Notes: a model not told the origin generated them from the letters alone. Numbered from the stretch's first letter, positions 20,837 to 46,972 are shown. The stretch: DNA of 49,008 nt from an uncultured bacterium (GCA_964525975.1 CAZGIO010000001.1:1-49008), one strand, 5' to 3'. Made by a program: numbers and translations.

Positions 20837-22099
20837 TTGGATAAATGCATTCTTATTGTGGAAAATTTTAAAGAGGACCAGAAGATACTCTCCTCGATCA
20901 TTGAAAACAATACATCATTGAAAGCCATAACCGCCGCAGACACAGATCTGGCGCTGGAGATGTTTGAAGTGGAGATGTTCAAGACAAAGAAGTTCTCCAC
21001 CCCTGAGATCATCGTCATCGACGTCATACTCCCTGGAAAAGACGGCTTCGAACTGGCTTCAGCCTTTTCAAAACGCGATGACACCAAACATATACCTGTG
21101 CTCTTCATCGTCTCCGCCAATGACATCAACAATAAGAAGAAGATCTTCAAATTCGGAGGCAGGGATTACATCGAAAAACCCTTTGTGATGGAGGAAGTCC
21201 TCACCAGGATCGATGTACAGCTGAACTATAAAAAGATGAAAGACGAGCTTCTGATCAAAAACGAACTCCTTGAGGACAATGAAAAACTGCTTGTGAGCAG
21301 GGGTAAAGAGGTTAAAGGGCTGCTGGAACTCCTGAAAGTGCTGGATTCAGACATATCTGCAGATGAAGCGCTGCAGACTATAACACGGAGGATAATCCCG
21401 GATTACCTTCAGTATCCCGACCGCACATACTGTGAGATAGAAGTTGACAAGAAAGTCTATTCAAATTTCACAAACGTCTATTCATCCAATAATTTTTCCC
21501 TCATCGTACCCATAAGATGGGGCGGAGCAGAGAGGGGAAGCCTTAAAGTAGGTTATGAAAAAAACGAAGGAAAACTTCTCTCGAATTTTGAGAAAAGGAT
21601 GATGGCAATATATGCATTCAACATAGCACATCTTATGGAGCGCCGTGAAGTGATGCGTACCAGGGACAGGAACAGTTCGGTGATCACGGCTACGCTGGAC
21701 GCCTACAGAGACGGCATACTCATCATGTCCAACACAGGAGAACTGCAGTACAATGACAGATTTATCGATATATGGGGATTGAGCAAGGAGATACTCACAT
21801 CTTACAACAGCAAAAAACTCCTTTCCGAGATGAGAAACAAGATGTCAGACCCCGATAAGTTTGATGGGATCATAAAACACGACGAAACAAACAAAGACGG
21901 ACGGCACGGACTGATCCCGTTTAAAGACGGCAGATCATTCATACTGAATACAAAGACAATACAAAGCCAGGGAGACACGGTCTTTTATGTCTGGAACTTT
22001 CATGACGTGACCCTGGAAGTAAAGCTTAAGAAAGAGATCCAATCTTTGAAGGAGAAAAACAACCAGATAGAGAATCTTTTAAACAAAAGAAACTTATAA
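20837..22099 (+). CDS. response regulator paralogue, REC (degenerate acidic pocket) + coiled coil + GAF-like + PAS-like
   Basis: TTG start after AAGGAGAG. Same architecture as the upstream gene (VKGLLELLKVL...; GILIMSNTGELQYNDRFIDIWGL). REC has E-N (LIVENF) in place of D-D but keeps the acceptor D (IIVIDVILPG), S and K. Confidence 0.72.
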   Translation: MDKCILIVENFKEDQKILSSIIENNTSLKAITAADTDLALEMFEVEMFKTKKFSTPEIIVIDVILPGKDGFELASAFSKRDDTKHIPVLFIVSANDINNKKKIFKFGGRDYIEKPFVMEEVLTRIDVQLNYKKMKDELLIKNELLEDNEKLLVSRGKEVKGLLELLKVLDSDISADEALQTITRRIIPDYLQYPDRTYCEIEVDKKVYSNFTNVYSSNNFSLIVPIRWGGAERGSLKVGYEKNEGKLLSNFEKRMMAIYAFNIAHLMERREVMRTRDRNSSVITATLDAYRDGILIMSNTGELQYNDRFIDIWGLSKEILTSYNSKKLLSEMRNKMSDPDKFDGIIKHDETNKDGRHGLIPFKDGRSFILNTKTIQSQGDTVFYVWNFHDVTLEVKLKKEIQSLKEKNNQIENLLNKRNL

Positions 22100-22121
22100 A
22101 TCGTTTTTTTGATTTTTTATA

Positions 22122-22149
22122 TTGATATAAACCTTTTTTTTAGTATAAT
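22122..22149 (+). promoter_or_regulatory. consensus-like sigma70 promoter for the tRNA-Val pair
   Basis: TTGATA (22122-22127), 16-nt spacer, TATAAT (22144-22149). The mature tRNA 5' end is 10 nt downstream of the -10. Confidence 0.6.
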
Positions 22150-22158
22150 CTTCTGGAA

Positions 22159-22231
22159 GGGCACATAGCTCAGCCGGTAGAGTAGCTGCTTGACGTGCAG
22201 TTGGTCGGGGGTTCAAATCCCTCTGTGCCCA
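22159..22231 (+). tRNA. tRNA-Val (anticodon GAC)
   Basis: GGGCACA-TA-GCTC-AGCCGGTA-GAGT-A-GCTGC-TTGACGT-GCAGT-TGGTC-GGGGG-TTCAAAT-CCCTC-TGTGCCC-A folds as a cloverleaf. Confidence 0.92.
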
Positions 22232-22250
22232 TCTTCCGTTGAATATAAAG

Positions 22251-22323
22251 GGGCATGTAGCTCAGTTGGTAGAGTAGCAGCTTCACATGTTGTTTGTCGG
22301 GAGTTCGAGTCTCTCCATGCCCA
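22251..22323 (+). tRNA. tRNA-Val (anticodon CAC)
   Basis: GGGCATG-TA-GCTC-AGTTGGTA-GAGT-A-GCAGC-TTCACAT-GTTGT-TTGTC-GGGAG-TTCGAGT-CTCTC-CATGCCC-A, followed by a T-run. Confidence 0.9.
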
Positions 22324-22637
22324 TTTTTTCTTCCTCATTATTTTTATTGAAATATCCTTGAGCTGCAATGCTTTTTATTCTTCTTAAATCCGGTGATCAA
22401 ATATATTACTTACAAGGCTCCCGATAAAAAAACAAAAAGGGGAGTCCATGATCATTTATAAAATATACCAGAGGTCTGATGTATCACGTCATAGCATGTC
22501 CTATAATATATGTTATGTTGAGTTACATATATTCTTTCTAGAATGGGACTCTTTTTTCTGTATAAAATATGTTTTGGGGTTGCGCCCCTCTGTTTCCAAA
22601 GGAGCGCAGGTATGTTAGAGATTGGTATGAAAAGGTC

Positions 22638-23072
22638 TTATTTAACGATGAACTTCACTTCTGATGTATTTGCAATATTGTCAGATATGGGGCATCTTTC
22701 ATCGATGTCGTGAAGGAAAGCTTCTTTCTCCTCTTTAGTCATATCAGCATCGATATCCACGTTTACTCTGATCTCTGTGAATCCGGCTCTGCCTTCTTTA
22801 GTGGCTCCCATGAGAAAATCCGTGTCGATGTCTGCTTCAACGTCGACTTTGATGCCGCGAAGGTCTATACGACGCTGTTTTGATATGATCCTTCCGATGG
22901 TGGCGATGCAGCCTGAAAGAGCTATGAGAATATACTCAAGCGGATTAGGGCCTTCATCGTTTCCCCCGCCCTGCACAGGCTGGTCCACGATGGCTACATG
23001 ATCCCTCATCTTTGTCTCGATCTTGAAATTGTCCAGCAGGTCCGCTGTGACTTTTACAGTTTTATTAGGCAT
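22638..23072 (-). CDS. OsmC/Ohr-family peroxiredoxin-like protein
   Basis: 144 aa. OsmC-like pattern with two conserved Cys contexts (LSGCIATI and ERCPISDN). GGAGG SD. Confidence 0.8.
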   Translation of the reverse strand: MPNKTVKVTADLLDNFKIETKMRDHVAIVDQPVQGGGNDEGPNPLEYILIALSGCIATIGRIISKQRRIDLRGIKVDVEADIDTDFLMGATKEGRAGFTEIRVNVDIDADMTKEEKEAFLHDIDERCPISDNIANTSEVKFIVK

Positions 23073-29036: not shown

Positions 29037-29056
29037 GCAGATCCTTTTCTTCAGTC

Positions 29057-32000
29057 TTACTGCATCATGCTGGAAGTGAATTTCATAGCTCCCCAGTACC
29101 GTGGTTCGGGAAAACGCTTTTTCAGTTCGATCACAGCATGCCAGTATGCTGTATCCATATCCATCCCCTGGTAAAGGTTCCTGTAAATATATTTAAATAA
29201 GACGCCTGTGGCCACGTCTGATATCCTCCAGAGCGAGGATATGACATGCCCCACATCACCTGAGAGGAAAGCTTTGTCAAGGGCCTGCACTTCCCCGCCC
29301 TCACCTAGTATGCCTGTCCCGGATTCACATGCGCTCAATACAACCAGGTCAGATGACACATCAAGGGCTTTGATCTCGTCCACATATAGAAAACCGTCCT
29401 CTTTTCCGTCTCCGCTCAGCATGAGATATGACAATTCCGGTATGGTCCTGTTGAACCTTCCATGGCATGCCAGGTGTATTATTGAAAAACGTTTTTTGGA
29501 CAACGTATCCTTGACAGCTGTTTCCGTGGCCTCTTTTCCCTTGAACAGGTCCGTTCCCTCGGGGAAAAGGAACTTGATCTCTCCAGCCTCTTTTTGAGCA
29601 AAGTAGAGTTCAAGACGTTCATCGCCAAGGTCCGGGTTTCCCAATGCCAGTATCGCGTCTTTATTCTGCCCAGTCTCCCCTCTTTTTGCTCCCAGGTCTG
29701 TCACATATTTTACCATATGACCATCCACAAGATGTTCATTCCCGTCCCAGAGCACGCTGAAGGGAATATATGTGAATTTCCAGTGGGTTGATATGATGAT
29801 CTTCACCGCGTCTTCGGGGACTCCCCCTGGGATCCAGCTGTATATCTCATGCCCCAGAAGCTCCAGTTCACTTGCACTGTTTTTTGACGTTACTGCTTCC
29901 ATGAAACGGTCTATGCGCCCTGATACATCGTCCATATCCAGGACTGCACCTGTATATTCCCCTCTGAATCCACTGATAATATATATCATGCGTGAAGTCG
30001 TATCTGTATAAAAAGAAAGATAGAGGCAGCTGTCCCTCATATCGAGGTCCACCCCCCTTAAAAGGTCTTCATCGCTTTTACCATGCCTGAAAAAGAGGCT
30101 CATCTTCAACTTGTCATACGCTTTTCTTTTATTCCTGAGTACATTCAGGTTCCATGCATCTTTTTCAGAAAGTGCCGCCGCATCCTTCATCTCAGAGAGC
30201 AGACCGCTTACAGCCTTCTTTTCGTCCCCGTCAAGGAGCGATGAAGGTATTGTCAAGTTGTTCACAAAAGAGGAGGCCCTTTTGATCATCTCCATAAGAG
30301 ACAACGCCTCATGATAAGCTCCCTCATTAAAATACATGCCTATAAGTTTCTCATATACATCCCGGTACTGAATAAACAGCATGATCTTCAACACATTCTC
30401 ACTCTGTTCCGACACAAGACTGCCGATGATTTCAGCGCAGGATGCAAGAAGCGCCCTGTCATTGAAAAGCATGCCGGTCTTTGCGGCTATCTCCAGTCTC
30501 TTCATGAGATAATTGTTCTTTTCAGCGGCTGTCATGGCTTTTTCAAGGAGCTTTCTGTCTCCATGTATAAGTCCCTTATACATCATCATCTCTACGCCTT
30601 CTTCACCGTCCGGCATGTGAGATACCGCATTAAAAGAGCGCTCTGCCTTTTCAAGGTCCCCTGTAAGATAATAAGTCTTCCCGAGATTGCGCAGGATCCC
30701 GTCTAATATATACCTGTTTTCCTTCTCCTCATATTCATCTCTGAGCGCATTCAGTATATCCAGGGCTTCCGGGAAATCTCCCTGCTTGCGCAATACCTTT
30801 GCTTTGTTTATTTTCAATACAGTTATCTGATTGATTATATTATACTGTTCAGCAAGTTTGATAGCTTCTTCAAAGACAGCCAGAGACGTGTCATAGGCGC
30901 CTGACTCTATAAGAGCCAGGGCTTTTAAGTTCAAAGCCCCCAGATATTCATCTATGAGCCCGGATCTTTTAGCTTCTTCAGCGATATTCTCCGCTTCAAC
31001 AGCTGTCTTTATATAGAGATATTTTCTGTAGTATGCTGTGGCTCTACCCAAGGCACTGTTTACCCTTATCTTTTTGTCAGAAGAACCCTCCAGTTCATTG
31101 AACATCTTTATAGCCTCGTCATTTGACCCCATGTCGCTTTTTATCAAAGCGTATGTCAATCTCTTCATCTCCTCCAGTCCCGGTTTTGTAATATCCTCGA
31201 GGGTCTGTTCAGCTGACCTGTATTCCTTGAAATATTTGTAATGGATCACAGCTTTTCCCAGCAGCGCCTCCTCGGTGTCAACGGCGTCATAAAGCTTAAG
31301 AGCTGACTGGAACTCCCCAAGCTTCTCATACAGCTGAGCTTCCCTCATAGGGTCGGTGCCCCCTGTTCTTTCCATATATTCCAGTGCTTTTGTATAATAT
31401 CCGTTTTTCTCATAAAGTCTGGAAAGCCTGTCATAGTAGACCGGTTCGCTGCTGTTTCCTCTCAAGGACAGGTAGAGCTTAAGTTCATCCTCTATAAGTG
31501 ACGGATCATGCATATTATCGGAAGCAATCTTTATAAGCCGGTACGTATAATCAGCAAGGGCTTTCTTGTCGTTTGAGACTTTCAATAACGATATCAGCCG
31601 TTTCAACTCTCTAAACGCGCGCTGATACAATCCTTCTTTCATGTATATGTAAGCGTTCTTGGATAAAACGGTCTTCCAGGCTTCTATGTAATCACCTGTC
31701 TCACCGCTGCTCATCTCGCCATATGATGACAGGTATCCGTTTATATCAAGGTAACCTGTTCCGTTGTAAAGCATCACATCTCCCATGAGACGTTTAGTTG
31801 TGCTTCCAAGAGGTGCGGCGGATTCAAGCTTGATACCGTCTAAGGTAAGCCCCTTTGCCAGTATCTCTCCCATATCCAGTCCTTCCCAGAAGACCGTTTT
31901 ATAGGGATTGATCTGTTCCTCCCCTTCAATCTGAAAACTGTAAGTACCGCTGTTATAAGTAAAGATGCTCTCCTGATCGCCCTCTTCAACTGGACTCATC

Positions 32001-35000
32001 ATAAACCTGTTGTTAAAGAAAAGAATGAACTGCTGAAGTGTAGAGAAGAAATAGCTTCCTCCCACATGATCCTCCCCCTTACGGTCCACTATGTATGGAG
32101 CCCGCCCTTCCACTTCAGACGCTACACTGCATCCATCTGAAGTAATACGCAGATATTTATCTTTCATCCGGTAATAAAGCACACGCCCCCCTGTAAGGCA
32201 TTTTTTCACATCATCCAAGGTCACGGACATCAGTCCCGTAAGGTTTCTTGCTTCGGGATTGAGTTTGTCCAGATAATATTCGCTGAGTTTTCTTTTCCCT
32301 TTATCCTTATAATAAAAATAGTTGTTTATATTTACCGTATCAAACTGAGAGGAAAGATCCGGTTTGAATATGATGAAAAGAGCTCTTTCAAACAAAGCGT
32401 CATAACGCGCGAGGAGATTGATCACTTTATCTTTCGAGACATTTTCAGCCACAGATTGGACGATTCCCGGATAATAATCGGGACGGTTCATATGGTAATA
32501 GTATATCTTATGCATATTTGAGCTGGTTAAAGACTCAGCGCTGCTCAGAGATTCTGAAAGATATTCCACTGATTTTTCATGGGACCGTGAATAAAGGTAT
32601 GCAAGATCCGAAAAGATGATGAAATCCGCGAACTTATCCTCCCCTGTCAAAGCAAGGAGATCCTCCTTTATTTCTCTTCCGTCTGAGTCATAAAGATATA
32701 AAAGCCGGAGACGCTGCATAAGAGGGCTGCTGTGATCCCTGCTCAGTTCCTGCAGGTATATGCGGGCACGTTCCATCTGTCTCATGTTTTTCTCCACAGC
32801 TGCCATGGCATCATTGAAATCAAGCCCTTGCTTAACCTCTTCGCCGGAACGGTGAACCATATATATATATATCATCTTATACAGGTCTTTGAGTCTTCCT
32901 CCACCCAGGGCTTCCACGTCTTCCGCCATCTCATCCAGTTCATCCATGGTCTTTTTCCCTGCTTCGCGCTTCAGGAAGACCGTTGAGAGCCGGTTCATTA
33001 TATAACCACGTTCAAACCCCTCTTTTACCGCCATATCCAGGGATTTATCCAGATATTTAACCGCAAACGTCTCCATACCTGATTTAAAATATAGATTTGC
33101 GAGATTATTGAATATGACCATGTCGCCAAATTTATTTCTGGATCTTTTAAGTTTTATCTCATAGTAGTAAGATGCTCTGTCATAATCCCCTGTTTTTTCA
33201 TGGGCTCTTGCAAGTATCGTGAAAGCCAGTTCTTTCTCCATATCATGGGAAAAACCCAAATAAGCCGAACTGTCTCCTTTTCCTCCGATGGAGACATCCA
33301 CATTGATGTTGAGCAGCCCTCCTGAAGACTTGCCGTCCTCGGTCTCTCCGATTATGTTTATGAGTTTCTGAGCTGCCTGTATGGCTTTTTCCTCATCTTC
33401 GCCCATGAGCGCATTATAGGCTATGTTTCTCAGATAAATAATCTCATCATCCCTGCTTATCTTCTCTCCTGATATCCTCAGACCCGATTCAAACTCCTTC
33501 ACGGCTTTCAGGTATTCCGTTTTGAGAGAATAGAGAAGACCTCTGTGCCTGTGTATGAAATCCATCCCGCCCTTATCACCCTGTTCAGAATATAAAGTGT
33601 AGAGACCGTGGTCATACTCGATAGCTTTGTCATAGTCTTCAAGGTTGTAATATATCTGTGACATCTTCAGAAAATAATCAAGCTGCTCATTTTTATTCCC
33701 ATACTGGCTGACAAGCCGGGAAGAGGACAAAAAACTGTCAAGAGCCTGATCATACAATTTGAGCTTAAAATATACATTGGCCATGTTTTTCTTAAAGTAT
33801 CCCTTTAATATATTACTGTAACTAAGCCCCAATCCTGTCTTATAATCTACAAGAGCCATTTCCAGAAACTTACCTTCCCCCAGTTGTTCCAGGCGCTCTT
33901 CCAGCCATCCCGCGGTGAGATAAAAGTAGGGTTCCTGCGGCGACAACGACATCGCGTTTCGTATGAGTTCCAGGGACCTTCTGTATGCGGCGGCCTCCTG
34001 TTCTTTTTTGCCTTTCAGCCCGTAATATGTACCTGCATAACTTAAGGCATATCCGTAAAGATAGATTGAATCAGCATCTTTTTCCATTGAGAGGTACCGT
34101 GACTTGTACTGTCCCGCTGTTTTTATAATATTTCCCAGTGAGTATTCAAGTTTTATGATCTCCCTGTTCACTGTAAGATCACCGCTTATCACAGACCTCA
34201 CAGTGAGAAGAGACTTCCTCGCCTGCAGCATGTCCCCGGACTCTATGTTTTTTTCGGCTTTTAAGAGTCCTTTTTCACGCACATAATCCACCATCTCATA
34301 GTAGAGACGTCCGTTATATCCCTCCTGTATGATATGTGCGAAATATTCGACGCCGTCCATGTTTTCTTCATTTCTGTAGATCTCAAGCATCTTTTCATAG
34401 ATGAGATTTCTGGGCTCTGTCTCTCTTATCTCTGAGAATATCTTTTCCCCTTCATCCACTGCTCCCTGCGCATCATCAAAAAGGGCAAGTGTTTCCATGA
34501 CAGCGGCTGCGGCGCCTGCGCGCAGAAACTCACACTGTCTGCTGTCTCGTATATAACCTTCCATGATATTGATTGAATACCCCGCTCTATCTGTGTATCT
34601 CCCCTTGTTCTTCAGCAGAAGATCCAGCGCTTCATATTCAGTATCCCCCGGCGTTAGCGTGCTGTTGAGCATCCTGACCAATATATCGTAAGCCCCTGTC
34701 TCATCACGGTTCTCAAGACGCAATACAGCCAGAAGATAATCAGCACTGTTTTTGATCCTCCTGTTCCTTAACCTTTTATAGTAGCGGCTGTAGAGTCTTT
34801 GGTACGACTCGATGTCATCCCTGGCTACATATAGACGATTCCACATCAGGTTCTCGTCTTCCCCGCCTTCCATCAGCCCTTCCACGGCGGTATCACTGTT
34901 ATATTTTGACAACATCGACCTGAAGGGTGAATCTGCTTCCAAGGTATCCATGAACTTCTTTTTTATCATGTCAGACAATGCTCTGCTTTCTTTTTCAAGC

Positions 35001-35995
35001 AGTTGGTTTATACATGATGATGCAAACAGGTATTTTTCTTTTTCCGGCCTTTCTGAACCTGCGATCTCTTCGCTGAGCAGTATTACTTCACCGGGATCAT
35101 CACTTTTATCCAGCAATGCTATATAGTGGTATATGGTTGAAAACCCCTTTCTCATGTCATCCACGGGCACCATACTCACTGTTTTGCCGTCGGTATAAAG
35201 GATCATGTCTCCCTTAATATCAAATGTGGTCATTCCTGCCTTATAAAATATTATCTCTTCCTTCTCTCCGTCATTATATATGACAAAGGGGTGGTCCTGC
35301 AGGTCAGCTGTGCCGTTTCCGTCTGTATCCACGGGATAACTGATATAATAGACGCCTGGTCTTGTCCCGTCACTCCTCAGGGAGTGTTTTTCGCTTTTTT
35401 GAGAGGGTATCATCCTGGGTGTTCCATCATCGAATTTGTAAAGGTTATTCTTGTCTCCAATAATATAGATCCCGCCGTCTGTTCCCCAGCAGATTTCTTT
35501 TCCCCCCATGATCTCAAATTCTTCACTGCGTCTTTCATCGATCCCTTCAATTTTCAGGAGAGTCATATCATCTTCTCGTGTGAGATAGGCCAGATCAGGC
35601 CATCTCAATACAGGGGAGATCTCTTCCACAAAAGTACTGCCGACGCTCCCTTTTCTGCCGTTCCCCTCATAACGGATATTACTTCTCACATCATCCTGGT
35701 TTGTCTGATATATAACCATTCCTCCTGAGACCGAGGAAAGTATCTCATCATATGAAGTCGAGGCAAGGGGATCTTCAGACCCGTCAGCGGGATCTTTTTT
35801 GTAAATATTATAATTATTTCCCTCATATACTGTATAATAGACCATTCCATCCCGGTCATCAAAATAACAGTTGATTATGGGGTCTATACGGACGGCTACC
35901 TTCGACGCTTCCTGAAACCGGATCGTCCGTTTTTCCACCGCTGCGCATGAAAAAAGGAATACCGCTGAGATTATAAGAGTGATCTTCTTAATCAT
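29057..35995 (-). CDS. giant lipoprotein: PD40/TolB-like propeller region + very long TPR array + C-terminal CHAT (caspase-like) protease domain
   Basis: ATG 35995 overlaps the upstream stop (ATGA). Signal peptide and lipobox MIKKITLIISAVFLFSC. Many TPR-like hairpins. CHAT hallmarks are HLACHG (His codon 29462-29464), VVLSACESG (Cys codon 29327-29329), SSLWRISD and PRYWGAMKF. The ORF track starts at TTG 36007 (2316 aa). Confidence 0.85.
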   Translation of the reverse strand: MIKKITLIISAVFLFSCAAVEKRTIRFQEASKVAVRIDPIINCYFDDRDGMVYYTVYEGNNYNIYKKDPADGSEDPLASTSYDEILSSVSGGMVIYQTNQDDVRSNIRYEGNGRKGSVGSTFVEEISPVLRWPDLAYLTREDDMTLLKIEGIDERRSEEFEIMGGKEICWGTDGGIYIIGDKNNLYKFDDGTPRMIPSQKSEKHSLRSDGTRPGVYYISYPVDTDGNGTADLQDHPFVIYNDGEKEEIIFYKAGMTTFDIKGDMILYTDGKTVSMVPVDDMRKGFSTIYHYIALLDKSDDPGEVILLSEEIAGSERPEKEKYLFASSCINQLLEKESRALSDMIKKKFMDTLEADSPFRSMLSKYNSDTAVEGLMEGGEDENLMWNRLYVARDDIESYQRLYSRYYKRLRNRRIKNSADYLLAVLRLENRDETGAYDILVRMLNSTLTPGDTEYEALDLLLKNKGRYTDRAGYSINIMEGYIRDSRQCEFLRAGAAAAVMETLALFDDAQGAVDEGEKIFSEIRETEPRNLIYEKMLEIYRNEENMDGVEYFAHIIQEGYNGRLYYEMVDYVREKGLLKAEKNIESGDMLQARKSLLTVRSVISGDLTVNREIIKLEYSLGNIIKTAGQYKSRYLSMEKDADSIYLYGYALSYAGTYYGLKGKKEQEAAAYRRSLELIRNAMSLSPQEPYFYLTAGWLEERLEQLGEGKFLEMALVDYKTGLGLSYSNILKGYFKKNMANVYFKLKLYDQALDSFLSSSRLVSQYGNKNEQLDYFLKMSQIYYNLEDYDKAIEYDHGLYTLYSEQGDKGGMDFIHRHRGLLYSLKTEYLKAVKEFESGLRISGEKISRDDEIIYLRNIAYNALMGEDEEKAIQAAQKLINIIGETEDGKSSGGLLNINVDVSIGGKGDSSAYLGFSHDMEKELAFTILARAHEKTGDYDRASYYYEIKLKRSRNKFGDMVIFNNLANLYFKSGMETFAVKYLDKSLDMAVKEGFERGYIMNRLSTVFLKREAGKKTMDELDEMAEDVEALGGGRLKDLYKMIYIYMVHRSGEEVKQGLDFNDAMAAVEKNMRQMERARIYLQELSRDHSSPLMQRLRLLYLYDSDGREIKEDLLALTGEDKFADFIIFSDLAYLYSRSHEKSVEYLSESLSSAESLTSSNMHKIYYYHMNRPDYYPGIVQSVAENVSKDKVINLLARYDALFERALFIIFKPDLSSQFDTVNINNYFYYKDKGKRKLSEYYLDKLNPEARNLTGLMSVTLDDVKKCLTGGRVLYYRMKDKYLRITSDGCSVASEVEGRAPYIVDRKGEDHVGGSYFFSTLQQFILFFNNRFMMSPVEEGDQESIFTYNSGTYSFQIEGEEQINPYKTVFWEGLDMGEILAKGLTLDGIKLESAAPLGSTTKRLMGDVMLYNGTGYLDINGYLSSYGEMSSGETGDYIEAWKTVLSKNAYIYMKEGLYQRAFRELKRLISLLKVSNDKKALADYTYRLIKIASDNMHDPSLIEDELKLYLSLRGNSSEPVYYDRLSRLYEKNGYYTKALEYMERTGGTDPMREAQLYEKLGEFQSALKLYDAVDTEEALLGKAVIHYKYFKEYRSAEQTLEDITKPGLEEMKRLTYALIKSDMGSNDEAIKMFNELEGSSDKKIRVNSALGRATAYYRKYLYIKTAVEAENIAEEAKRSGLIDEYLGALNLKALALIESGAYDTSLAVFEEAIKLAEQYNIINQITVLKINKAKVLRKQGDFPEALDILNALRDEYEEKENRYILDGILRNLGKTYYLTGDLEKAERSFNAVSHMPDGEEGVEMMMYKGLIHGDRKLLEKAMTAAEKNNYLMKRLEIAAKTGMLFNDRALLASCAEIIGSLVSEQSENVLKIMLFIQYRDVYEKLIGMYFNEGAYHEALSLMEMIKRASSFVNNLTIPSSLLDGDEKKAVSGLLSEMKDAAALSEKDAWNLNVLRNKRKAYDKLKMSLFFRHGKSDEDLLRGVDLDMRDSCLYLSFYTDTTSRMIYIISGFRGEYTGAVLDMDDVSGRIDRFMEAVTSKNSASELELLGHEIYSWIPGGVPEDAVKIIISTHWKFTYIPFSVLWDGNEHLVDGHMVKYVTDLGAKRGETGQNKDAILALGNPDLGDERLELYFAQKEAGEIKFLFPEGTDLFKGKEATETAVKDTLSKKRFSIIHLACHGRFNRTIPELSYLMLSGDGKEDGFLYVDEIKALDVSSDLVVLSACESGTGILGEGGEVQALDKAFLSGDVGHVISSLWRISDVATGVLFKYIYRNLYQGMDMDTAYWHAVIELKKRFPEPRYWGAMKFTSSMMQ

Positions 35996-36549
35996 TTTTT
36001 CTGCCAATCTCCTTTAGATATTTCTATCAACCAGCCCTTTTCAGCCTCTTCTCTGAATTTTTTTGCGAATATTTCTCTTACTTTTTCCATATCGGTACTG
36101 CTTAATCCTTCAGTCACAGACAATATCCTCTGAAATATTATCTCCCTGTCCCTGTTCTCTTCTTCTATGAACCTTCGAACAAACCGGTGTAGTTCGCTGT
36201 CCCGTGCAAGTCTTTCACTATCCGCCACTGCGACCCTGCCGTTCCATGATTCGCCGATTATTCCCATGTCCATGAACCTTCGATAATCGTCTTCATTATA
36301 TTTCCGGTTCTGATATGCAAGAAACGCTCTTTTTCTGCCGTCGCTTATTAATGAGATATCATCGGGCATGGTCCGAATGGACACCAGGAGCAGTTCATCA
36401 TTGCCTATGAAATCATAATTTCCGATGACCTGGTTTTCCAGTGATGTCTTTTCACCCACAAGGTTTATCTCGATCTTTGCTTTTGGGGAAAGAAGTGAAC
36501 AGCTGAACAAGAAAAATGCACAGGTGGACAGAATAAAAATTTTTCTCAT
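35992..36549 (-). CDS. lipoprotein, YdbL/DUF1318-like
   Basis: 185 aa. Signal peptide and lipobox MRKIFILSTCAFFLFSC. Segments GIIGESWNGRVAV and FIEEENRDREIIFQRI resemble the conserved G-x-GE...G and eN-x-dR motifs I recall for DUF1318. Position is downstream of a YdbH-like gene. Confidence 0.5.
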   Translation of the reverse strand: MRKIFILSTCAFFLFSCSLLSPKAKIEINLVGEKTSLENQVIGNYDFIGNDELLLVSIRTMPDDISLISDGRKRAFLAYQNRKYNEDDYRRFMDMGIIGESWNGRVAVADSERLARDSELHRFVRRFIEEENRDREIIFQRILSVTEGLSSTDMEKVREIFAKKFREEAEKGWLIEISKGDWQKK

Positions 36550-36562
36550 ATTTTGCCGCCTT

Positions 36563-37021
36563 TCAGAAATTTATGTTTTTTTCCTTCAGCAACGCCTGAA
36601 GGGGGATCCTCCTGATGGGCTCCACCTGGACGTTGCCGATAATAAATCCCAGAAAAAAGGATGCTATATTTGATCGTCTGAACCCGAATTCCGGTATAAT
36701 GTCAATATATCCGTTGGATACTTTTACCATGATATTTTTCGGCACGACACCCACCATATTCATCTTTTTTCTCATATCCCTCATCTGCGGGTTGTTTCCG
36801 TCGGGATCCATTGAAAGTATTGCTTTGTCGACAACATCCTTGTCTATCCTCGTTATATCGCAAAAGCCTGATATATCGTCACCCTTCAGCTCAAAACGGG
36901 TGACAAAGGAGAGCAGAGACCTTCCTTTTTTACCCGTCCCTTTTCTGATATTCAGATCGATTGCGTTCAGGGAAAAACGGTAATCCTTGTTCTCCAGGTC
37001 CGCGTACACTTCTCCGCCCAT
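36563..37021 (-). CDS. C-terminal fragment of the AsmA/YdbH-like protein (separate frame; the frame is open back to 37063)
   Basis: 152-aa ORF overlapping the 3' end of the 698-aa ORF by 55 nt in the -1 frame. No SD before its ATG. The peptide stays protein-like upstream of its ATG (GKQTFLDGQMGGEVY...). Confidence 0.5.
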   Translation of the reverse strand: MGGEVYADLENKDYRFSLNAIDLNIRKGTGKKGRSLLSFVTRFELKGDDISGFCDITRIDKDVVDKAILSMDPDGNNPQMRDMRKKMNMVGVVPKNIMVKVSNGYIDIIPEFGFRRSNIASFFLGFIIGNVQVEPIRRIPLQALLKEKNINF

Positions 37022-39063
37022 CTGACCGTCGAGAAACGTCTGTTTACCGCACTTAGCTCCGCGTCAAGATCCTCGACTGAATATTGATTATAGTCGGCTT
37101 TTTCCATAGATATCCTGTATCCTCCGGCTTGTTCATCGCCGGGGCTCCTTTTATTGCTGAAAAAATATGGTATGGAAAGAGAAAGCCCCCTGAACTTCAG
37201 ATCATCCATCTTTCCTTCTTCGATCCTGCAGTCCAATACTGCCTTAAAATCGTCTTTTGTCCCGTCAAACCATATCTCCCCGTCAATACCCGATAAGGCA
37301 GCGCCGTTTCCCCTGTAACTTATGTGGTCCAGGTGATTTTCCGAACTGATCTTCAGCTCCTCCAATGTCCCAGACGCTTCCATATTGAAACTCACAGTCC
37401 CTGAAAGCTCTGCTCCGTCCAGGGCTGAATATGAACTTCCTATATCATTAAGGTCTATACGTGAATCTGAAAGTGTTATATCCACAGCTCTCCGGCCCAG
37501 GTCATCTATATAGCCGTCTATCTTAAACCTGTTATTATCACCGCTTTTTATTACAAGTTCATTGAAATAAAGGAACCTTCGTTCCAGTTCCATGATAATA
37601 TTACCGGTAAAACTGACACTGTCTGCGGCCAGTTTTTCTTTTCCCATGCGCATATCGATATTTTCCCCTTTAAGATCAAAATCCATGGAAATATCTTTAC
37701 TGCTGCTGCCTGATACTTTGATATCACCGTTAAACTTGGCGTAAAGCGGTATGTCAAAATAGTTGAGGAAAGTCATATCTTTCATAGAGATATCATATTC
37801 ATGCTCAGAGAGTCCTTTTGTGTATCCCTGCAGTTTGAACTGGCCGCCGTAGCTCTTAAATCCCATGTAGCCGACTTTTATCTCGCTTACTTCGGTGAAA
37901 TCATCCACCCTGGCCTCGGCTTCAATCCTGAAATCAGTGAGCTTTGTGCCCGTCTGGTTTATAGTGATATTATCCAGCGCCAGATCAAGCGCTGCGGTTA
38001 CACGCTCCTTTGTCCCTTCCGCGTCGAGTCGAGCCCGTCCGTCCAGAGAAAGCATATCCGTTTCAAACCGCATCTCCTTCAGGTCCATCCTGCATGAGAA
38101 ACTGTCTTCTTCAGCATCTCCATTCAACGTGATCGTCCCGGAGATCCTTCCTGGGATCTCTCCCTTTACTGCGTCATTCACAAGTTCCAGGGTCTCAGCC
38201 AGATCTATCTCTGCGTTCATCTCACGAATATCATATGATGATATACCATACGTCTCATCAAAAGTCACTGATCCGCTTAACTCAGCCAATGGCAGACGTT
38301 CCCCGTCCAGCCTCACCCGCCGTATATCCAGACTTCTTTTTTCAGTGGACATCACCAGATCAATAAGCAGCGAGATATCCCCCACTTTATCCTTTTCGGA
38401 TATCTCTGCCGAAGCATTTAAACCGATGGAACCGTTTTCTTCCCGCGCTCCGATGTTGAGGACAAAAGGTATTTCCAGCCTTGTTTCCTTCCATGAGAGA
38501 AGCAGATCGCTGCTCCCGGCGAATGTCATGTCAAACTGCATGTTTTCCAACCCGCCCCCGCCATGATTTATGGAAAGGCCCATGTTGTAACCGCCGGTCT
38601 TTATCTCCATATCTTCCTGTATATAAGACACGGCGAGCCCTTTCAAAGAAAGATATCTTATCTCAAAGGGAGGAATATCACCGCTTCCACGTGATATTTC
38701 ACCTTCTCTATTCTTTTCCCGGCTTTCTTCCTGCAAAGAGATGGTTATATGGGGGTCTATGACCTCTATTTTATTGATTACAGGTTTAAATTTAATCAGG
38801 GATGCAGGTGATACAGAAAGACTCGCTTTTTCACATGCAAGCGCTATCCCGTCCCTGCTGTACTCTATCTCCTTAATTGTGATATTCCAGGGTAAAAACG
38901 CCGATATTTTAATACTTTCAAGCCCCGGCACCCTGGAGACCATGAGGTCTTCACCTGCCTTGGAAGATATAAACAGAGATAATATGAGGAATATAAGCGA
39001 CACCGCCGCTGCTGTCACCGCGGCGGCGCGCAAACATTTGATGAATAACTTATTTTTAAACAT
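36967..39063 (-). CDS. AsmA-family / YdbH-like envelope-spanning protein, N-terminal 698 aa (apparently frameshifted near its 3' end)
   Basis: N-terminal TM anchor AAVTAAAVSLIFLILSLFISS, followed by a long beta-rich repetitive region typical of AsmA/TamB/YdbH-like proteins. The last ~24 aa (RRFSTVRWAEKCTRTWRTRITVFP) look like out-of-frame sequence. Confidence 0.55.
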   Translation of the reverse strand: MFKNKLFIKCLRAAAVTAAAVSLIFLILSLFISSKAGEDLMVSRVPGLESIKISAFLPWNITIKEIEYSRDGIALACEKASLSVSPASLIKFKPVINKIEVIDPHITISLQEESREKNREGEISRGSGDIPPFEIRYLSLKGLAVSYIQEDMEIKTGGYNMGLSINHGGGGLENMQFDMTFAGSSDLLLSWKETRLEIPFVLNIGAREENGSIGLNASAEISEKDKVGDISLLIDLVMSTEKRSLDIRRVRLDGERLPLAELSGSVTFDETYGISSYDIREMNAEIDLAETLELVNDAVKGEIPGRISGTITLNGDAEEDSFSCRMDLKEMRFETDMLSLDGRARLDAEGTKERVTAALDLALDNITINQTGTKLTDFRIEAEARVDDFTEVSEIKVGYMGFKSYGGQFKLQGYTKGLSEHEYDISMKDMTFLNYFDIPLYAKFNGDIKVSGSSSKDISMDFDLKGENIDMRMGKEKLAADSVSFTGNIIMELERRFLYFNELVIKSGDNNRFKIDGYIDDLGRRAVDITLSDSRIDLNDIGSSYSALDGAELSGTVSFNMEASGTLEELKISSENHLDHISYRGNGAALSGIDGEIWFDGTKDDFKAVLDCRIEEGKMDDLKFRGLSLSIPYFFSNKRSPGDEQAGGYRISMEKADYNQYSVEDLDAELSAVNRRFSTVRWAEKCTRTWRTRITVFP

Positions 39064-39068
39064 CGCTT

Positions 39069-39097
39069 ATTATAACAATAAAAACCGCTCAAATCAA
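39069..39097 (-). promoter_or_regulatory. extended -10 sigma70 promoter placed for a leaderless YdbH-like transcript
   Basis: Minus strand: TTGATT (39092-39097), 17-nt spacer ending TGT, TATAAT (39069-39074), then only AAGCG before ATG 39063. No SD. Confidence 0.55.
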
Positions 39098-43040: not shown

Positions 43041-43859
43041 CTACAGCTCCTTAATAACATCATCTATCCTGACAAGGGTCTCAAGGTAATCTTCCATCAT
43101 ATCAAGGGGAACCATATTGGGACCGTCTGACATGGCTTTTCCTGGATCAGGGTGGACTTCCATAAAAATCCCTGCGATGCCCGCAGTAAGCGCAGCCTTG
43201 GCAAGGGGCAGGACATATTCTCTGTTTCCTCCGCTTGTGCTGCCCAGTCCCCCGGGCTGCTGCACACTGTGTGTGGCGTCAAATATCAAAGGATATCCCG
43301 TCTCGCGCATCACCTCAAGTGACCTTATATCTGTAACCAGGTTGTTGTATCCGAAAGATGCTCCCCTTTCAGTAAGGAGTATGTTCCGGTTCCCTGTGGA
43401 TTCCACTTTCTTGACCACATGTCTCATATCCCAGGGAGCTAAAAACTGTCCCTTCTTGATATTGACTGTTGCACCGGTCCTGCCCGCAGCAACGAGCAGG
43501 TCTGTCTGTCTGCATAAAAACGCGGGTATCTGGATAATATCAGCCACCTGGGCGGCATACTCAGCCTGCATCTCATTATGTACGTCTGTAAGCACAGGGA
43601 GATCAAACTCGTTTTTCACTTTTTCCAGTATTTTCATACCCTTTTCCAGACCCGGACCTCTATATGAGTCTATGGAAGACCTGTTTGCCTTATCAAAAGA
43701 GGCTTTAAAGACATAATCTATGCCTTTTTTTTCAGTTACAGCTTTCATCTTCTCCGCTATGGCCAAGACATTTTCCACATCTTCTATGACACAAGGGCCG
43801 GCAATGAGAACAAATCTCCTGCTGTTTGAAAACAGTATGTTTCCCGTCTTTACATCCAT
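43041..43859 (-). CDS. kdsA: 3-deoxy-8-phosphooctulonate (KDO-8-P) synthase
   Basis: 272 aa. Motifs KASFDKANRSS, QIPAFLCRQTDL, FDATHSVQQPGG. Confidence 0.92.
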   Translation of the reverse strand: MDVKTGNILFSNSRRFVLIAGPCVIEDVENVLAIAEKMKAVTEKKGIDYVFKASFDKANRSSIDSYRGPGLEKGMKILEKVKNEFDLPVLTDVHNEMQAEYAAQVADIIQIPAFLCRQTDLLVAAGRTGATVNIKKGQFLAPWDMRHVVKKVESTGNRNILLTERGASFGYNNLVTDIRSLEVMRETGYPLIFDATHSVQQPGGLGSTSGGNREYVLPLAKAALTAGIAGIFMEVHPDPGKAMSDGPNMVPLDMMEDYLETLVRIDDVIKEL

Positions 43860-43921: not shown

Positions 43922-46900
43922 TCAATGAGACGTATCATACAGCAGCACAAATGGGCGGTCTCCACCGGCCCTTATCCGTGTGGCTGTCTTGACGGAGACA
44001 ACAGCCCCCTCTTTTTCCCTCAGATATGAAAATATTACCTCAGGGCAGGTTCCGTTCCCGAAACCTTTTAGCGAGAGTATAGAGTATGGTATTTCTTCAT
44101 CCCCTGTCACCGCAAGCCCCAGTTCGCCTCCTGTAAATTCAGCCCAGTCATGGGCATCGATCGTTGATACTATCAGAGCCGCCACACCTTCTTTTTCAGC
44201 CTCTTCCATGATGGTCAGGGTAAGTTTCCCTTCATAAAAACCCACTGCGCCCTCTCTATCCCAACTTCCAGGTTTATATTCATACAACCTGCCGAAGATA
44301 TTTTTACCGAAAGCAATGGATCCCGAGATCTTATCACCCTCGGCTTTCAGGTATAGGTCGGTCTCATCATGTATGGATGAGATCTTACCACGCGCCCATG
44401 CATGGAAATCCACTTCCCTGTTCTGATATTCTATGGTCACCTCACCTGTCTTCCTGTCGATGGAAGTGATTATCCCGGGTCCCGGCGCCTTCAGCCGGTC
44501 ATATTCACGCATATAAAGGGTAGACTGAGTCAGAGAAAGCAGATGCACACCCTTTTCAACATAATCACCCTTGCGGTACTGCAGCATCCCCTCCACTGAA
44601 CGGGGCCGCACTCCACATAATTCCGCCACTGGTATGACCATGGGTTCCCTGGAATAATGGAGCTCCTCCTCTAAGACGATCATCCCCGTCTCCTCGATCA
44701 CCTTCACCACACCGCTTATGGTAGAACGCACCTTCTCACGTCTCCCTGCGATGACACCGTTGAAGATAATATCTCCCGTTGTCACTTTATCTCCCTTTTT
44801 CACCACGACGCCCGCAGCGGCTTCTTCTGAGGATATATTGTCCGCGATCCCTTTAAGTCTGCGTCTTATATCTATGATATAGATCCGCGGAGGCATCTTC
44901 ATGGCGGTGCCTATCTTCTGACCGCATTCCACGATATCACCTTTCTTCACATGCATGATGCCGCGAAACGGCAGCGAGATGGACAACTCTTCCTCCACAT
45001 TTTTTTCCAAGACAGGATCCGCTCCTTCCACGGCTGCTTCATAGTCGCTGTCTGTGGCAAACATCCTCAGATGTTCAGACAGCATGGTGCCGTCATACTG
45101 TTTTTCACGTCCTCTGCAGTCGATGAGAAGAGGCAGGCTTGTATCCACTTCGATCTCTTTCCTGTTTTTATATATCTCGCTTCCCTTCTCAGCTATGATC
45201 TTAGCTTTGAGTCCCCTGGGGTAATAGAGCACTTCTCCCCACCGCACCTGAGCTGATATTGAGTCATCGATTTCTGTAAGCTTCAACACATTCCTGCCTT
45301 TTGTGTATTTTCCCGAGGGAGCCACCACCATGCCCACCTTTTTCAACACTTCATCCCTGTAGACTTCATAGGCTTTTTCCTTGTCCACAGCTGCGAACAA
45401 TCCCATGTGAGGAGATCGGAACCCCCGGTCATACATTATATTGCTGATACCTGAAGGGAGAAAAGCGTCTGCCAGCATGAGAAATATGGATTCCTCGTCG
45501 CCTGTATGTGATATAACACCACCTGATCCCACATAAGTATCAATATCTGTTAGTTGAAAAATCTTATCCTCCGATTCCATATAAAGCAGGGACATAAATT
45601 TATCCCGTTCCTTATCATCACGCAACTTCTCAAGGAAACCTACCCTTTTTTCCCTGAAGGACATCTCCATATGCTGTTTCCACGCTTCACGGATCCCCGC
45701 CACAGCCAAAGCGCGTTCCACAGCTATCTCATTTTTTTTCACAGGTATATATCCGGGGGTTATCATCTTGCTGTATACATATTCCCGGATATAAGGACTG
45801 TTCATCCCTGTCATGAGCGATATCTTCTCCACACCTTCGGTTTCCAGTATCTTACCCAGGGAATAACTCATCCCCAGGTGAGCAGCTACTGTCCTGCTGT
45901 ATTCACCGATTATATTGGAGTAAATATCTGTGGTCGCTCCTCCTATGTCTGCGAGAGCGATGTTTTTCCTCTCATGTTCTCCATACAGAGACAATATGCG
46001 CTCCACCCCCGCAGGGGTGGGCATGAGGTTTCCCGAAGTCCATTTTTTGATCCTGGAATATCCCGGGGCTCTTTCCATGACTTTTTCAAGGAATATCTCC
46101 CGGATCCTGCGCTTTGCGGGAAACATGTTCATGGTCTCCAGGTCAGGCCTTATGTTTTCCACGGTCTCCACCTCAAACTGATCACCCAGGGTCTCTTTTA
46201 CTGTCTCGGCAGCGGCACTGTTCCCTGCATATATTACAGGAAGCTTTCCCGTATGCTTCGCTGAAGGACTTGAGAGTGACAATATCTCAGCAAGTCTTAT
46301 CACCGATATTACATTCCCCCCCTCCACGCCGCCGGAAAACAGCACCATATCCGCTGATACCCTCTTCATATTCAGTATCCTCTGGACTACTGGCATCTCA
46401 TCATCGATGGTATATGTCCTTATGATGACTCCTCCTGCCCCATTAGCTGTCATCTCAGCGACCAGACCTGTATCAGTGGATGAGACGCCGAAAACAATGA
46501 TCTGCAGTCCTCCTCCAGCTGAGCTTGTTGCCATAATCGGTATCACCGGCGCGTTGTTCTGAACCAGCTTCCTGCCGTAAGCACCTCCCAGTTCTTCCAT
46601 TGCGTCTATAACTCCCCTGGATACATCGTTTCCTCCTGAGACCGCTGTTGTGGGCACATAAGACTCTGCTTTAATTACAAAGAGGCCTTTATCGTCTTTT
46701 TCAAGGAGCATGGCTTTTGTCGCTGTACTGCCTATATCAATCAGAGCAAAAATATTGCCGTTTCCCACATCAAAATACTTTTCGTCCCAGAAAAGGTCGT
46801 CCAGTGTGGATTCCAAAGCCCTGGCAATAGACATGCATACTTTAAGGGACGGATTAAAGCGTTCGCTTTCTATGAGAGCTATAGTCTGCCTGCTGATACC

Positions 46901-46972
46901 TGTCTTTTCAGCAAGCTGAGCCTGGCTCAGTTTCATTGCTTTTCTTCTGATTTTAACATTCAGACCAAACAT
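43922..46972 (-). CDS. multidomain fusion: XRE-type HTH + GlmL/MutL-family (glutamate mutase L-like, actin-fold) ATPase + ~470-aa C-terminal region with repeated barrel-sandwich (lipoyl-like) hairpins
   Basis: AAGGAGG SD. aa 1-65 match XRE HTH (KLSQAQLAEKTGISRQTIALIESERFNP). aa ~75-545 carry GlmL/MutL hallmarks LIDIGSTATKA, ATSSAGGGL, LFSGGVEGGN, PVIYAGN, MPTPAGV, ADIGGATTDIYS. The C-terminus has KKGDIVECGQKIG, KKGDKVTTGDIIF and RKGDYVEKGVHLL. Confidence 0.75.
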   Translation of the reverse strand: MFGLNVKIRRKAMKLSQAQLAEKTGISRQTIALIESERFNPSLKVCMSIARALESTLDDLFWDEKYFDVGNGNIFALIDIGSTATKAMLLEKDDKGLFVIKAESYVPTTAVSGGNDVSRGVIDAMEELGGAYGRKLVQNNAPVIPIMATSSAGGGLQIIVFGVSSTDTGLVAEMTANGAGGVIIRTYTIDDEMPVVQRILNMKRVSADMVLFSGGVEGGNVISVIRLAEILSLSSPSAKHTGKLPVIYAGNSAAAETVKETLGDQFEVETVENIRPDLETMNMFPAKRRIREIFLEKVMERAPGYSRIKKWTSGNLMPTPAGVERILSLYGEHERKNIALADIGGATTDIYSNIIGEYSRTVAAHLGMSYSLGKILETEGVEKISLMTGMNSPYIREYVYSKMITPGYIPVKKNEIAVERALAVAGIREAWKQHMEMSFREKRVGFLEKLRDDKERDKFMSLLYMESEDKIFQLTDIDTYVGSGGVISHTGDEESIFLMLADAFLPSGISNIMYDRGFRSPHMGLFAAVDKEKAYEVYRDEVLKKVGMVVAPSGKYTKGRNVLKLTEIDDSISAQVRWGEVLYYPRGLKAKIIAEKGSEIYKNRKEIEVDTSLPLLIDCRGREKQYDGTMLSEHLRMFATDSDYEAAVEGADPVLEKNVEEELSISLPFRGIMHVKKGDIVECGQKIGTAMKMPPRIYIIDIRRRLKGIADNISSEEAAAGVVVKKGDKVTTGDIIFNGVIAGRREKVRSTISGVVKVIEETGMIVLEEELHYSREPMVIPVAELCGVRPRSVEGMLQYRKGDYVEKGVHLLSLTQSTLYMREYDRLKAPGPGIITSIDRKTGEVTIEYQNREVDFHAWARGKISSIHDETDLYLKAEGDKISGSIAFGKNIFGRLYEYKPGSWDREGAVGFYEGKLTLTIMEEAEKEGVAALIVSTIDAHDWAEFTGGELGLAVTGDEEIPYSILSLKGFGNGTCPEVIFSYLREKEGAVVSVKTATRIRAGGDRPFVLLYDTSH

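Follow-up and report, generated by a model that had tools for sequence, protein, structure and literature searches.

We analyzed a 49,008-nucleotide stretch of DNA from an uncultured bacterium (GCA_964525975.1 CAZGIO010000001.1:1-49008; the whole stretch is referred to here as the window), in which positions 29057 to 35995 of the minus strand encode a 2,312-amino-acid (aa) protein, hereafter called the giant, that begins with a predicted lipoprotein signal peptide and ends in a CHAT domain. The explanation that best accounts for the whole of the data, and that we favor with moderate confidence, is that the giant is an envelope-located protease/scaffold encoded in one operon with a module made up of an AsmA-like protein and a DUF1318 lipoprotein. 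We were led to an envelope-located module by the conserved export signal and catalytic dyad of the giant, its CHAT fold, its propeller, its coupled DUF1318 partner, and the frequent presence of AsmA-family neighbors. The architecture of the giant, the conservation of its signal and dyad, its fold, and its gene linkage come directly from the computations described below. Known CHAT caspase-fold proteases belong to cytoplasmic signaling and defense (craspase, separase), the one extracytoplasmic case being the periplasmic anti-sigma factor DdvA. The parts of the giant are as follows.

29057-35995, minus strand: giant lipoprotein gene, 2,312 aa, with its stop codon at 29057-29059; the product aligns end to end with orthologs of 2,303 to 2,340 aa.
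35945-35995, minus strand: predicted signal peptide with lipobox, residues 1-17 (MIKKITLIISAVFLFSC), which satisfies a PROSITE-type rule; Cys17 is the predicted lipidated residue.
35006-35944, minus strand: N-terminal beta-rich domain, residues ~18-330, a PD40/Tricorn_N-type homologue by hhalign against the N termini of relatives, with no direct Pfam match.
35294-35329, minus strand: DxDxDG-type loop, D223-T-D-G-N-G-T-A-D-L-Q-D234 (DTDGNGTADLQD), conserved in the family; putative Ca2+ motif.
30029-34978, minus strand: long helical region, residues ~340-1989, with multiple Pfam TPR matches between residues 736 and 1790.
31676-32488, minus strand: conserved non-TPR insert, residues ~1170-1440, kept among orthologs and with no Pfam, PDB, or CHAT-profile similarity.
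29060-30028, minus strand: CHAT (caspase-fold) domain, residues ~1990-2312, from a Pfam match to residues 2065-2304, an AlphaFold2 (AF2) model, and Foldseek.
29462-29464, minus strand: predicted catalytic His2178 (HLACHG), invariant in 24 of 24 sequences and aligned with Csx29 H615.
29327-29329, minus strand: predicted catalytic Cys2223 (LSACESG), invariant in 24 of 24 sequences and aligned with Csx29 C658.

The frame is open from 29057 to 36007 on the minus strand, and the ATG at 35995 is the likely start, giving a product whose size agrees with the ~2,300 aa proposed in a first-pass annotation of the window. This ATG shares the sequence ATGA with the stop codon (TGA) of the upstream DUF1318 open reading frame (ORF) and is preceded, at a distance of 13 nt, by an AAGGAG. 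Alternative starts exist at a TTG four codons 5' of the ATG and at Met51 on its 3' side, and the first-pass annotation had raised the prospect that the true start lies 3' of the hydrophobic segment. The ATGA overlap fixes the start at 35995, and the conserved signal supports the same codon; the giant is translationally coupled to the DUF1318 lipoprotein gene. From N to C terminus, the product consists of a Sec-type signal peptide with lipobox, a PD40/Tricorn-type domain, a long helical/TPR region, and CHAT. NCBIfam and PADLOC scans of the giant returned nothing beyond the Pfam matches. Exact-sequence look-ups of the giant (with either start) and of LeuRS matched no record, and the sole exact relative in a 1.8-billion library was a 232-aa fragment (P0005) identical to the C terminus of the giant.

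Orthologs were collected by an alignment-based scan of GTDB species genomes, which yielded nine loci (L006 to L014), all from metagenome-assembled genomes (MAGs); an earlier GTDB scan with the single giant protein as the query had found nothing. Eight of the nine orthologs are 28 to 43% identical to the giant over the full length, and two of the MAGs are named Candidatus Mcinerneyibacteriota / Mcinerneyibacterium aminivorans. A third, L012 (DSCS01000058.1), is titled "Bacillota bacterium"; its gene order and ~70% LeuRS identity are as in the Mcinerneyibacteriota MAGs and the window, and it is probably mislabeled.

At the C terminus, the Pfam CHAT family (PF12770; caspase-hemoglobinase fold, clan CD) matched residues 2065 to 2304 with 137.3 bits (cutoff, 24; E = 9.6e-40). 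The first-pass annotation had placed the codons of the dyad at exactly the positions of residues 2178 and 2223, and H2178 and C2223 were invariant in every alignment that we built (7, 20, and 24 sequences); the flanking H-G and S-A-C motifs were also invariant in all 24 members, at 16 to 43% overall identity. When a profile of 20 CHAT regions was compared with the PDB, it matched Csx29 (7Y9X; E = 7.6e-9), with H2178 and C2223 falling on H615 and C658. Mutation of these two Csx29 residues abolishes Csx30 cleavage (PMC10028731), and the claim of an intact CHAT dyad is therefore upheld both by its invariance and by its alignment with proven catalytic residues. An AF2 prediction of the CHAT region from the single sequence was unusable (predicted local distance difference test [pLDDT] score, 40.7) and was replaced by one made from the 20-sequence alignment (pLDDT, 88.6; predicted template modeling score, 0.89). 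The first-pass annotation had proposed a comparison with caspase, separase, and CHAT structures; made here with Foldseek, at the level of the overall fold, it matched the model to Csx29/TPR-CHAT (E = 8e-18), DdvA (4e-14), and separases (1e-8 to 1e-9), with further matches to SAVED-CHAT, gingipain RgpB (E = 3e-6), and caspases and a Foldseek probability of 1.00 for all of these. As modeled, the CHAT region of the giant has a CHAT/separase-type fold. The CHAT blocks are also the best-conserved part of the giant among orthologs, with a column identity of 0.71 to 0.76 versus ~0.45 elsewhere; such high conservation is typical of a maintained active site. From the intact, conserved dyad and the fold, we infer protease activity for the giant.

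The N terminus is consistent with export and lipid anchoring. We applied a PROSITE PS51257-type lipoprotein rule, which calls for a basic n-region, an uncharged h-region (six uncharged residues), and a lipobox of the form [LVI..][..][AGS]C with the Cys at position 15 to 35. The giant satisfies it with K3/K4, the uncharged h-region ITLIISAVFLF, and L-F-S-C17; of the 76 ORFs (minimum, 100 aa) read from the six frames of the window, its upstream neighbor (MRKIFILSTCAFFLFSC) is the only other one to do so. Because the N terminus of the giant has no twin-arginine motif, Sec export is expected. A lipobox Cys (in FSC, GGC, LSC, or ISC) ends the hydrophobic segment in nine of nine sequences, namely, the window protein and eight full-length orthologs. 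Among 40 further metagenome giants with an intact N terminus, 38 have a hydrophobic signal segment and 11 a lipobox-like motif. Together with the conservation of the lipobox in orthologs at 25 to 43% identity, these sequence features bear out the exported, lipid-anchored N terminus proposed earlier and support export and lipidation as a conserved state of the giant and its orthologs. Lipidation of the giant and its choice of membrane are predictions. The host is a diderm: the 3-deoxy-D-manno-octulosonate (KDO) pathway genes kdsA, kdsD, and kdsC were found by Pfam scan in the same window, 5 to 8 kb upstream, and an AsmA-like gene is adjacent.

Export is not peculiar to this protein. We searched 1.84 billion cluster representatives exhaustively with HMMER, using residues 1880 to 2312 as the query, and obtained 76,410 relatives at E values up to 1e-3 and 464 at E values up to 1e-30. 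A word-indexed homolog search gave four matches for the full giant and none for its N-terminal 445 aa, and TPR proteins dominated its output when the 24-sequence alignment was the query. Of the 150 closest CHAT domains, 55 lie in proteins of more than 2,000 aa and 67 in proteins of 600 to 1,200 aa; of those that start with Met, 46/54 giants and 53/62 of the smaller proteins have a hydrophobic N terminus, many with a lipobox-like Cys. Since most of these closest relatives and 38/40 of the metagenome giants bear signal-like segments, export is the rule, and lipidation is common, in this large CHAT clade, many of whose members look like lipoproteins. The first-pass annotation had considered an exported CHAT protein unusual, a view that these counts do not bear out, and its restriction of the characterized bacterial CHAT domains to the cytoplasm is out of date: a periplasmic TPR-CHAT structure has been solved for DdvA of Myxococcus xanthus, with His862/Cys907 in a resting geometry and autoproteolysis proposed (PDB 8ROT; PMC11506125). 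For the giant propeller-TPR-CHAT family itself, we found no description in the searchable literature, and database entries carry generic names only.

The N-terminal domain could be assigned only through relatives. No Pfam family matched the first 433 residues of the giant, and PD40 (PF07676) was not called there even at E values up to 1. A nine-sequence profile of the first 340 mature residues did match the PD40/Tricorn_N region of relatives of 2,500 to 2,900 aa, which have significant Pfam PD40 and precomputed Tricorn_N/Tricorn_2nd matches (hhalign probability, 99.3%; E = 7.3e-21; 315 columns). The PD40/TolB-like strands reported earlier for the first ~300 aa are therefore supported indirectly, by this match to PD40-bearing relatives, whereas a Pfam PD40 repeat is not called in the giant itself. 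The loop from D223 to D234, with the pattern D-T-[DN]-x-[DN]-G-x-x-D-x-x-D, is kept in 22 to 23 of 24 family members, and D234 is invariant. It may be a Ca2+ site of the propeller, which would fit an extracytoplasmic protein. The domain resembles TolB/Tricorn-type PD40 propellers, of which the TolB type is periplasmic, in being homologous to the PD40/Tricorn_N region of relatives. It differs from them in that no Pfam PD40 match is significant and in its fusion partners, which are TPR and CHAT and not a TolB N-domain or a tricorn protease core.

Between the propeller and CHAT, the first-pass annotation had described ~1,600 aa of TPR-like hairpins. The long helical region stands, and several TPR profiles scored above their cutoffs: TPR_12 with 84.9 bits (cutoff, 30.1), TPR_2 with 66.9 (27), TPR_7 with 50 (27.9), and TPR_1 with 45.1 (27.8). 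The matches are confined to residues 736 to 1790, with designed TPRs in the PDB matching residues 900 to 972. The description was oversimplified in that the insert at ~1170 to 1440 is non-TPR, showing no similarity when compared with Pfam, the PDB, TPR, and the CHAT profile. Residues 1120 to 1460 were considered as a second, degenerate CHAT domain; this candidate was rejected (hhalign probability, 5%; no PDB relative).

The most informative clue to the function of the giant is the DUF1318/AsmA-like gene context, which is absent from the first-pass annotation. A periplasmic TPR-CHAT protein (DdvA) was already known; the conserved linkage to DUF1318 and AsmA-like genes is new, and we found no description of it in the searchable literature. 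The elements upstream of the giant are as follows.

35992-36549, minus strand: gene for a 185-aa DUF1318 (YdbL-like) lipoprotein (MRKIFILSTCAFFLFSC), with a Pfam DUF1318 match and agreement with the lipobox rule; its stop overlaps the ATG of the giant.
36563-39063, minus strand: gene for an AsmA-like, N-terminally membrane-anchored protein, split into 36967-39063 and 36563-37021; a single ORF in relatives.
39069-39097, minus strand: highest-ranking sigma-70-like promoter match (TTGATT-17-TATAAT, with TG), located in the 56 bp that separate leuS from the AsmA-like gene; a consensus match only.

The C-terminal domain of the 185-aa protein scored 42.2 bits against Pfam DUF1318 (cutoff, 27), and hhalign aligned its C-terminal half with Escherichia coli YdbL (probability, 90%; E = 1.6e-6). 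This protein and the giant share the same FLFSC lipobox. All 13 DUF1318 partners taken from the genome loci and the look-ups have a lipobox Cys; in the metagenome, the DUF1318 match begins at a Cys after the signal peptide in 76 of 76 loci with usable upstream sequence, 46 of them with a canonical lipobox. A DUF1318 gene (183 to 204 aa) lies directly upstream in three of four distant giants that we looked up singly. A profile of the DUF1318 lipoprotein, run against metagenome contigs, retrieved 262 relatives; we retained 80 loci, 62 of which had enough downstream sequence. A giant propeller(-CHAT) ORF lay directly downstream on the same strand in 47 of these 62 and 1.3 to 7 kb downstream on the same strand in 7 more. 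The DUF1318-giant pair thus recurs across distant lineages (54/62 metagenome loci). A tblastn search of plasmids with DUF1318 gave no match.

Mature residues 1 to 70 of the DUF1318 lipoprotein (36295-36498, minus strand) form a conserved lipidated extension, C-x4-PKAKIEINLVGEKTSLENQVLGNY..., that is absent from E. coli YdbL. The reading of this extension as a fused YnbE, on a loose resemblance to PKEPITINMNVKIE, is unsupported (hhalign probability, 0.2%; no Pfam match).

Upstream of the DUF1318 gene, the ~865-aa protein has a hydrophobic N-terminal anchor. A hidden Markov model (HMM) of its family found an ORF by DUF1318 in 14 distant loci, directly upstream in 13 and ~3 kb upstream in one (L027). 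The ~1,100-aa distant upstream proteins that were tested passed the Pfam AsmA cutoff in five of five cases (30 to 61 bits; cutoff, 29.8), and they also matched DUF748 and, once, YhdP. Homology to these clearer AsmA-family proteins, taken with the subthreshold matches of the lineage's own protein given below, tentatively suggests that the upstream family is AsmA-like. The order ~865-aa protein, DUF1318 lipoprotein, giant was kept in eight of eight genome loci with upstream sequence, four of which have outer flanks unrelated to the window. Across the MAG genome loci, the module occupies one position in a syntenic housekeeping context (leuS, kds genes, upp), and the 130 neighboring ORFs of 38 loci are heterogeneous metabolic and housekeeping genes (UDPGP, DUF948, YtxH) with no defense or mobile-element theme. 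In total, sigma-70-like promoter matches were not above those in shuffled sequences.

In E. coli, the AsmA-like inner-membrane protein YdbH bridges to the outer-membrane lipoprotein YnbE (PMC11126948, PMC13464000), and YdbL, a periplasmic DUF1318 protein, binds the C-terminal helix of YnbE and controls its assembly, with unbound YdbL being degraded by DegP (PMC13464000). The likeness to our locus is that both operons pair an inner-membrane-anchored protein, of the AsmA superfamily in E. coli and a candidate member of it here, with a DUF1318 protein and a lipoprotein. Several differences set the two apart: the locus has no YnbE homolog, its AsmA-like protein is not YdbH-type, and its gene order differs; the DUF1318 protein of the window is itself a lipoprotein with an extra ~70-residue N-terminal segment; and the third gene encodes a 2,312-aa CHAT protein in place of a 61-aa lipoprotein. 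Because there is no YnbE and no YdbH-type domain, the cluster is best described as analogous to YdbH-YnbE-YdbL and not as a member of it.

Under the envelope-module explanation, the giant would belong to a diderm of the candidate phylum Mcinerneyibacteriota, would be exported by Sec and lipidated at its N terminus, and would face the periplasm; it would be composed of a TolB/Tricorn-type propeller with a Ca2+-type loop, a ~1,600-residue helical/TPR solenoid, and a catalytically competent CHAT. Together with the AsmA-like inner-membrane-anchored protein and the DUF1318 lipoprotein, it would form one envelope module, analogous to YdbH-YnbE-YdbL. The DUF1318 lipoprotein could chaperone or inhibit its partner by binding a helical element in either the giant or the AsmA-like protein, as YdbL does with YnbE, while the propeller and solenoid would dock envelope proteins. 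CHAT might then cut an envelope partner site-specifically, the first candidates being DUF1318 or the AsmA-like protein and otherwise another docked envelope protein, and this cut would control assembly or turnover of the module. These steps, along with any surface exposure and any role in lipid transport, are suggested by analogy. A more specific version, which we regard as doubtful, places the giant on the outer-membrane side of an AsmA-like bridge, as both its partner and its built-in regulatory protease, with DUF1318 as a securin-like chaperone, inhibitor, and substrate. If this version were true, many uncultured diderm lineages would have a lipid-transport or tethering machine under proteolytic control, and homeostasis of their outer membrane would be governed by a caspase-fold enzyme.

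A number of observations weigh against the envelope-module explanation. In the lipobox of the giant, the -2 residue is Phe, which is less canonical. The AsmA-like gene of the window is frameshifted near 37026-37047, whereas relatives have one ORF of 864 to 873 aa, and the lineage's own 865-aa protein has subthreshold matches only (DUF748, E = 3e-5; TamB, E = 2.6e-5; TamB in the PDB, E = 0.008); its direct hhalign comparison with E. coli YdbH was negative, and PF11739 did not match. A YnbE-like gene or domain was not detected by Pfam (Lipoprotein_19, none) or hhalign (0.2%), and the AsmA-like and DUF1318 genes lie too close together for another ORF to fit between them. One of the four distant giants looked up singly has no DUF1318 gene, and 8 of the 62 informative DUF1318 loci have no nearby giant. 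The metagenome sample is moreover biased, since the search motif was derived from DUF1318 proteins known to be paired, and the pairing therefore holds for this DUF1318 subfamily and not for all DUF1318 proteins. Finally, gene linkage is no proof of physical interaction, and the whole family, which is described here from sequence, is without a known activity or substrate. Concerning the frameshift, we note that relatives carry ~9 to 12 more residues at the junction; the split could be an assembly-error indel or mark a recent pseudogene.

Comparison with the known CHAT and caspase-fold systems bears on the remaining explanations. Csx29 of the type III-E craspase is the best structural match, has an aligned dyad, and likewise places a TPR array before CHAT, its activity being controlled by a bound partner. 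It differs in being cytoplasmic, ~700 to 750 aa long, and RNA-activated through Cas7-11 to cleave Csx30; no Cas7-11 (gRAMP), Csx30, Csx31, or CRISPR array was found in the window, and PADLOC gave no match. With separase, the giant shares the layout of a giant helical-repeat protein ending in a caspase-fold protease, and, by analogy only, its small coexpressed partner could be both chaperone and inhibitor, as securin is. Separase differs in being a eukaryotic, nuclear/cytoplasmic protein without an export signal or propeller, and the partner proteins are nonhomologous.

DdvA provides the basis for an alternative in which the giant is an envelope sensor or defense protein whose propeller and TPRs detect a foreign periplasmic protein, from a phage or competitor, whereupon CHAT cleaves itself or a signaling partner. 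We consider this unlikely. DdvA is the closest solved structure after the Csx29/TPR-CHAT craspase (PDB profile, E = 2.9e-6, in addition to the Foldseek match), and this periplasmic TPR-CHAT protein has been proposed to sense a phage protein (PMC11506125); like the giant, it is extracytoplasmic and has a canonical His/Cys dyad, with proteolysis unproven in both. TPR-CHAT proteins are moreover frequent in conflict systems, and a FecR gene lies downstream of one distant relative and an MCP gene upstream of another. The two proteins differ in other respects: DdvA is 991 aa long, is anchored by a transmembrane helix, carries a cytoplasmic zinc anti-sigma domain, is paired with a sigma factor of the extracytoplasmic function (ECF) class, and regulates a CBASS-CRISPR island, whereas the giant has 2,312 aa, a lipobox anchor, an N-terminal propeller, no sigma partner, and no defense genes. 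When the giant was examined for DdvA-type features, we found no zinc anti-sigma domain or transmembrane helix and no adjacent sigma-70/ECF gene, nor are there CBASS, CRISPR, or effector genes. PADLOC did not match the giant, the DUF1318 protein, or the AsmA-like protein, and the housekeeping synteny across MAGs is stable, with heterogeneous metabolic neighbors across lineages. With no defense genes among the 130 neighboring ORFs of the 38 loci, the reading of the locus as a defense system was rejected.

A second alternative, to which we give little credence, is that the giant is a surface or periplasmic tricorn-like protease that feeds an amino acid-fermenting organism. It draws on the matches of relatives' N termini to Tricorn_N, Tricorn_2nd, and DPPIV_N, which are substrate-gating propellers of peptidases, on the name "aminivorans" of one host lineage, and on the existence of secreted clan CD proteases, with gingipain RgpB among the fold matches. 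In RgpB, a diderm is already known to have an extracytoplasmic caspase-fold protease, although the fold match is weak and RgpB belongs to family C25, is secreted by the type IX system with a C-terminal sorting domain, and has no TPR, propeller, or lipobox. Characterized clan CD/CHAT enzymes are site-specific regulators and not bulk degraders, and a 1,600-residue TPR scaffold suggests protein-protein assembly over digestion. Nor is there an obvious nutritional logic in having a YdbL-like lipoprotein and an AsmA-like protein as conserved partners, and peptide transporters or other peptidases are not consistently adjacent.

The giant could also be a noncatalytic periplasmic spacer or adaptor in which CHAT serves as a binding module only. 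Activity has been shown for no CHAT protein of this clade, the DdvA dyad is in a resting geometry with proteolysis unproven, and the huge solenoid is scaffold-like; the invariance of His/Cys and of the flanking motifs in 24/24 members, and the standing of the CHAT blocks as the best-conserved ones, make this quite improbable. That the giant is a cytoplasmic CHAT protein, its hydrophobic N terminus being a start codon artifact or an uncleaved segment, draws on the alternative TTG and Met51 starts and is very improbable given the ATGA overlap, the signal and lipobox conserved in all orthologs (and the signal in most of the wider family), the same lipobox in the DUF1318 partner, and a Ca2+-type loop and PD40 propeller that are typical of extracytoplasmic proteins.

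Other observations concern the surroundings of the module and the rest of the window. In six loci of one distant lineage (L045, L080, L082, L084, L092, and L093; ~2.5 to 10 kb), a recurring pair of ~850-aa and ~475-aa ORFs is followed by the AsmA-like gene, which hints at a larger conserved operon; UDPGP, the commonest Pfam family among the neighboring ORFs (8/130), was not mapped to this pair. On the other side of the module, L006 (16962-18167) and L012 (16939-18150) have a ~400-aa opposite-strand ORF between the CHAT gene and a NUDIX gene, which in L006 encodes an MFS transporter by Pfam; the CHAT/NUDIX gap is of similar size in L007 and L008 and only 20 bp in the window (29037-29056). Genes of the window are all on the plus strand from 1 to 22 kb and all on the minus strand from 22.6 to 47 kb. 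The switch, at about 22,000-22,640, converges on two tRNA-Val genes (22159-22231 and 22251-22323), where the sign of the GC skew changes, and possibly marks a replication terminus; a search there for an E. coli-type dif site, with up to three mismatches allowed, found none. A 1,016-aa protein (43922-46972, minus strand) combines an N-terminal Cro/C1-type helix-turn-helix (HTH), a MutL (PF13941) ATPase-like domain, and an RnfC_N-like segment, and it adjoins the kds genes in four related MAG loci (L006, L007, L008, and L012). The window has two genes of the DAHP_synth_1 family (43041-43859 and 48340-48897, both minus strand). Next to kdsD and kdsC is a full kdsA-like gene. The second gene, a 185-aa ORF located ~110 bp short of the window end, covers only positions 79 to 255 of the 270-position profile and was possibly called from an internal start.

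A YdbL-like lipoprotein gene, and often an AsmA-family gene as well, is thus genetically linked to the genes of giant propeller-TPR-CHAT proteins. How phospholipids reach the outer membrane, and how AsmA-like bridges are assembled and regulated, are questions in which these bridges and YdbL hold a central place; a protease dedicated to this system would provide a concrete mechanism of regulation. Such a protease would, in addition, extend the logic of separase and craspase, in which a giant scaffold, a small partner, and one precise cut are combined, to the bacterial periplasm. Were the link to be only genomic, the giants would still give envelope biology a new and clearly bounded family from phyla that are poorly known.

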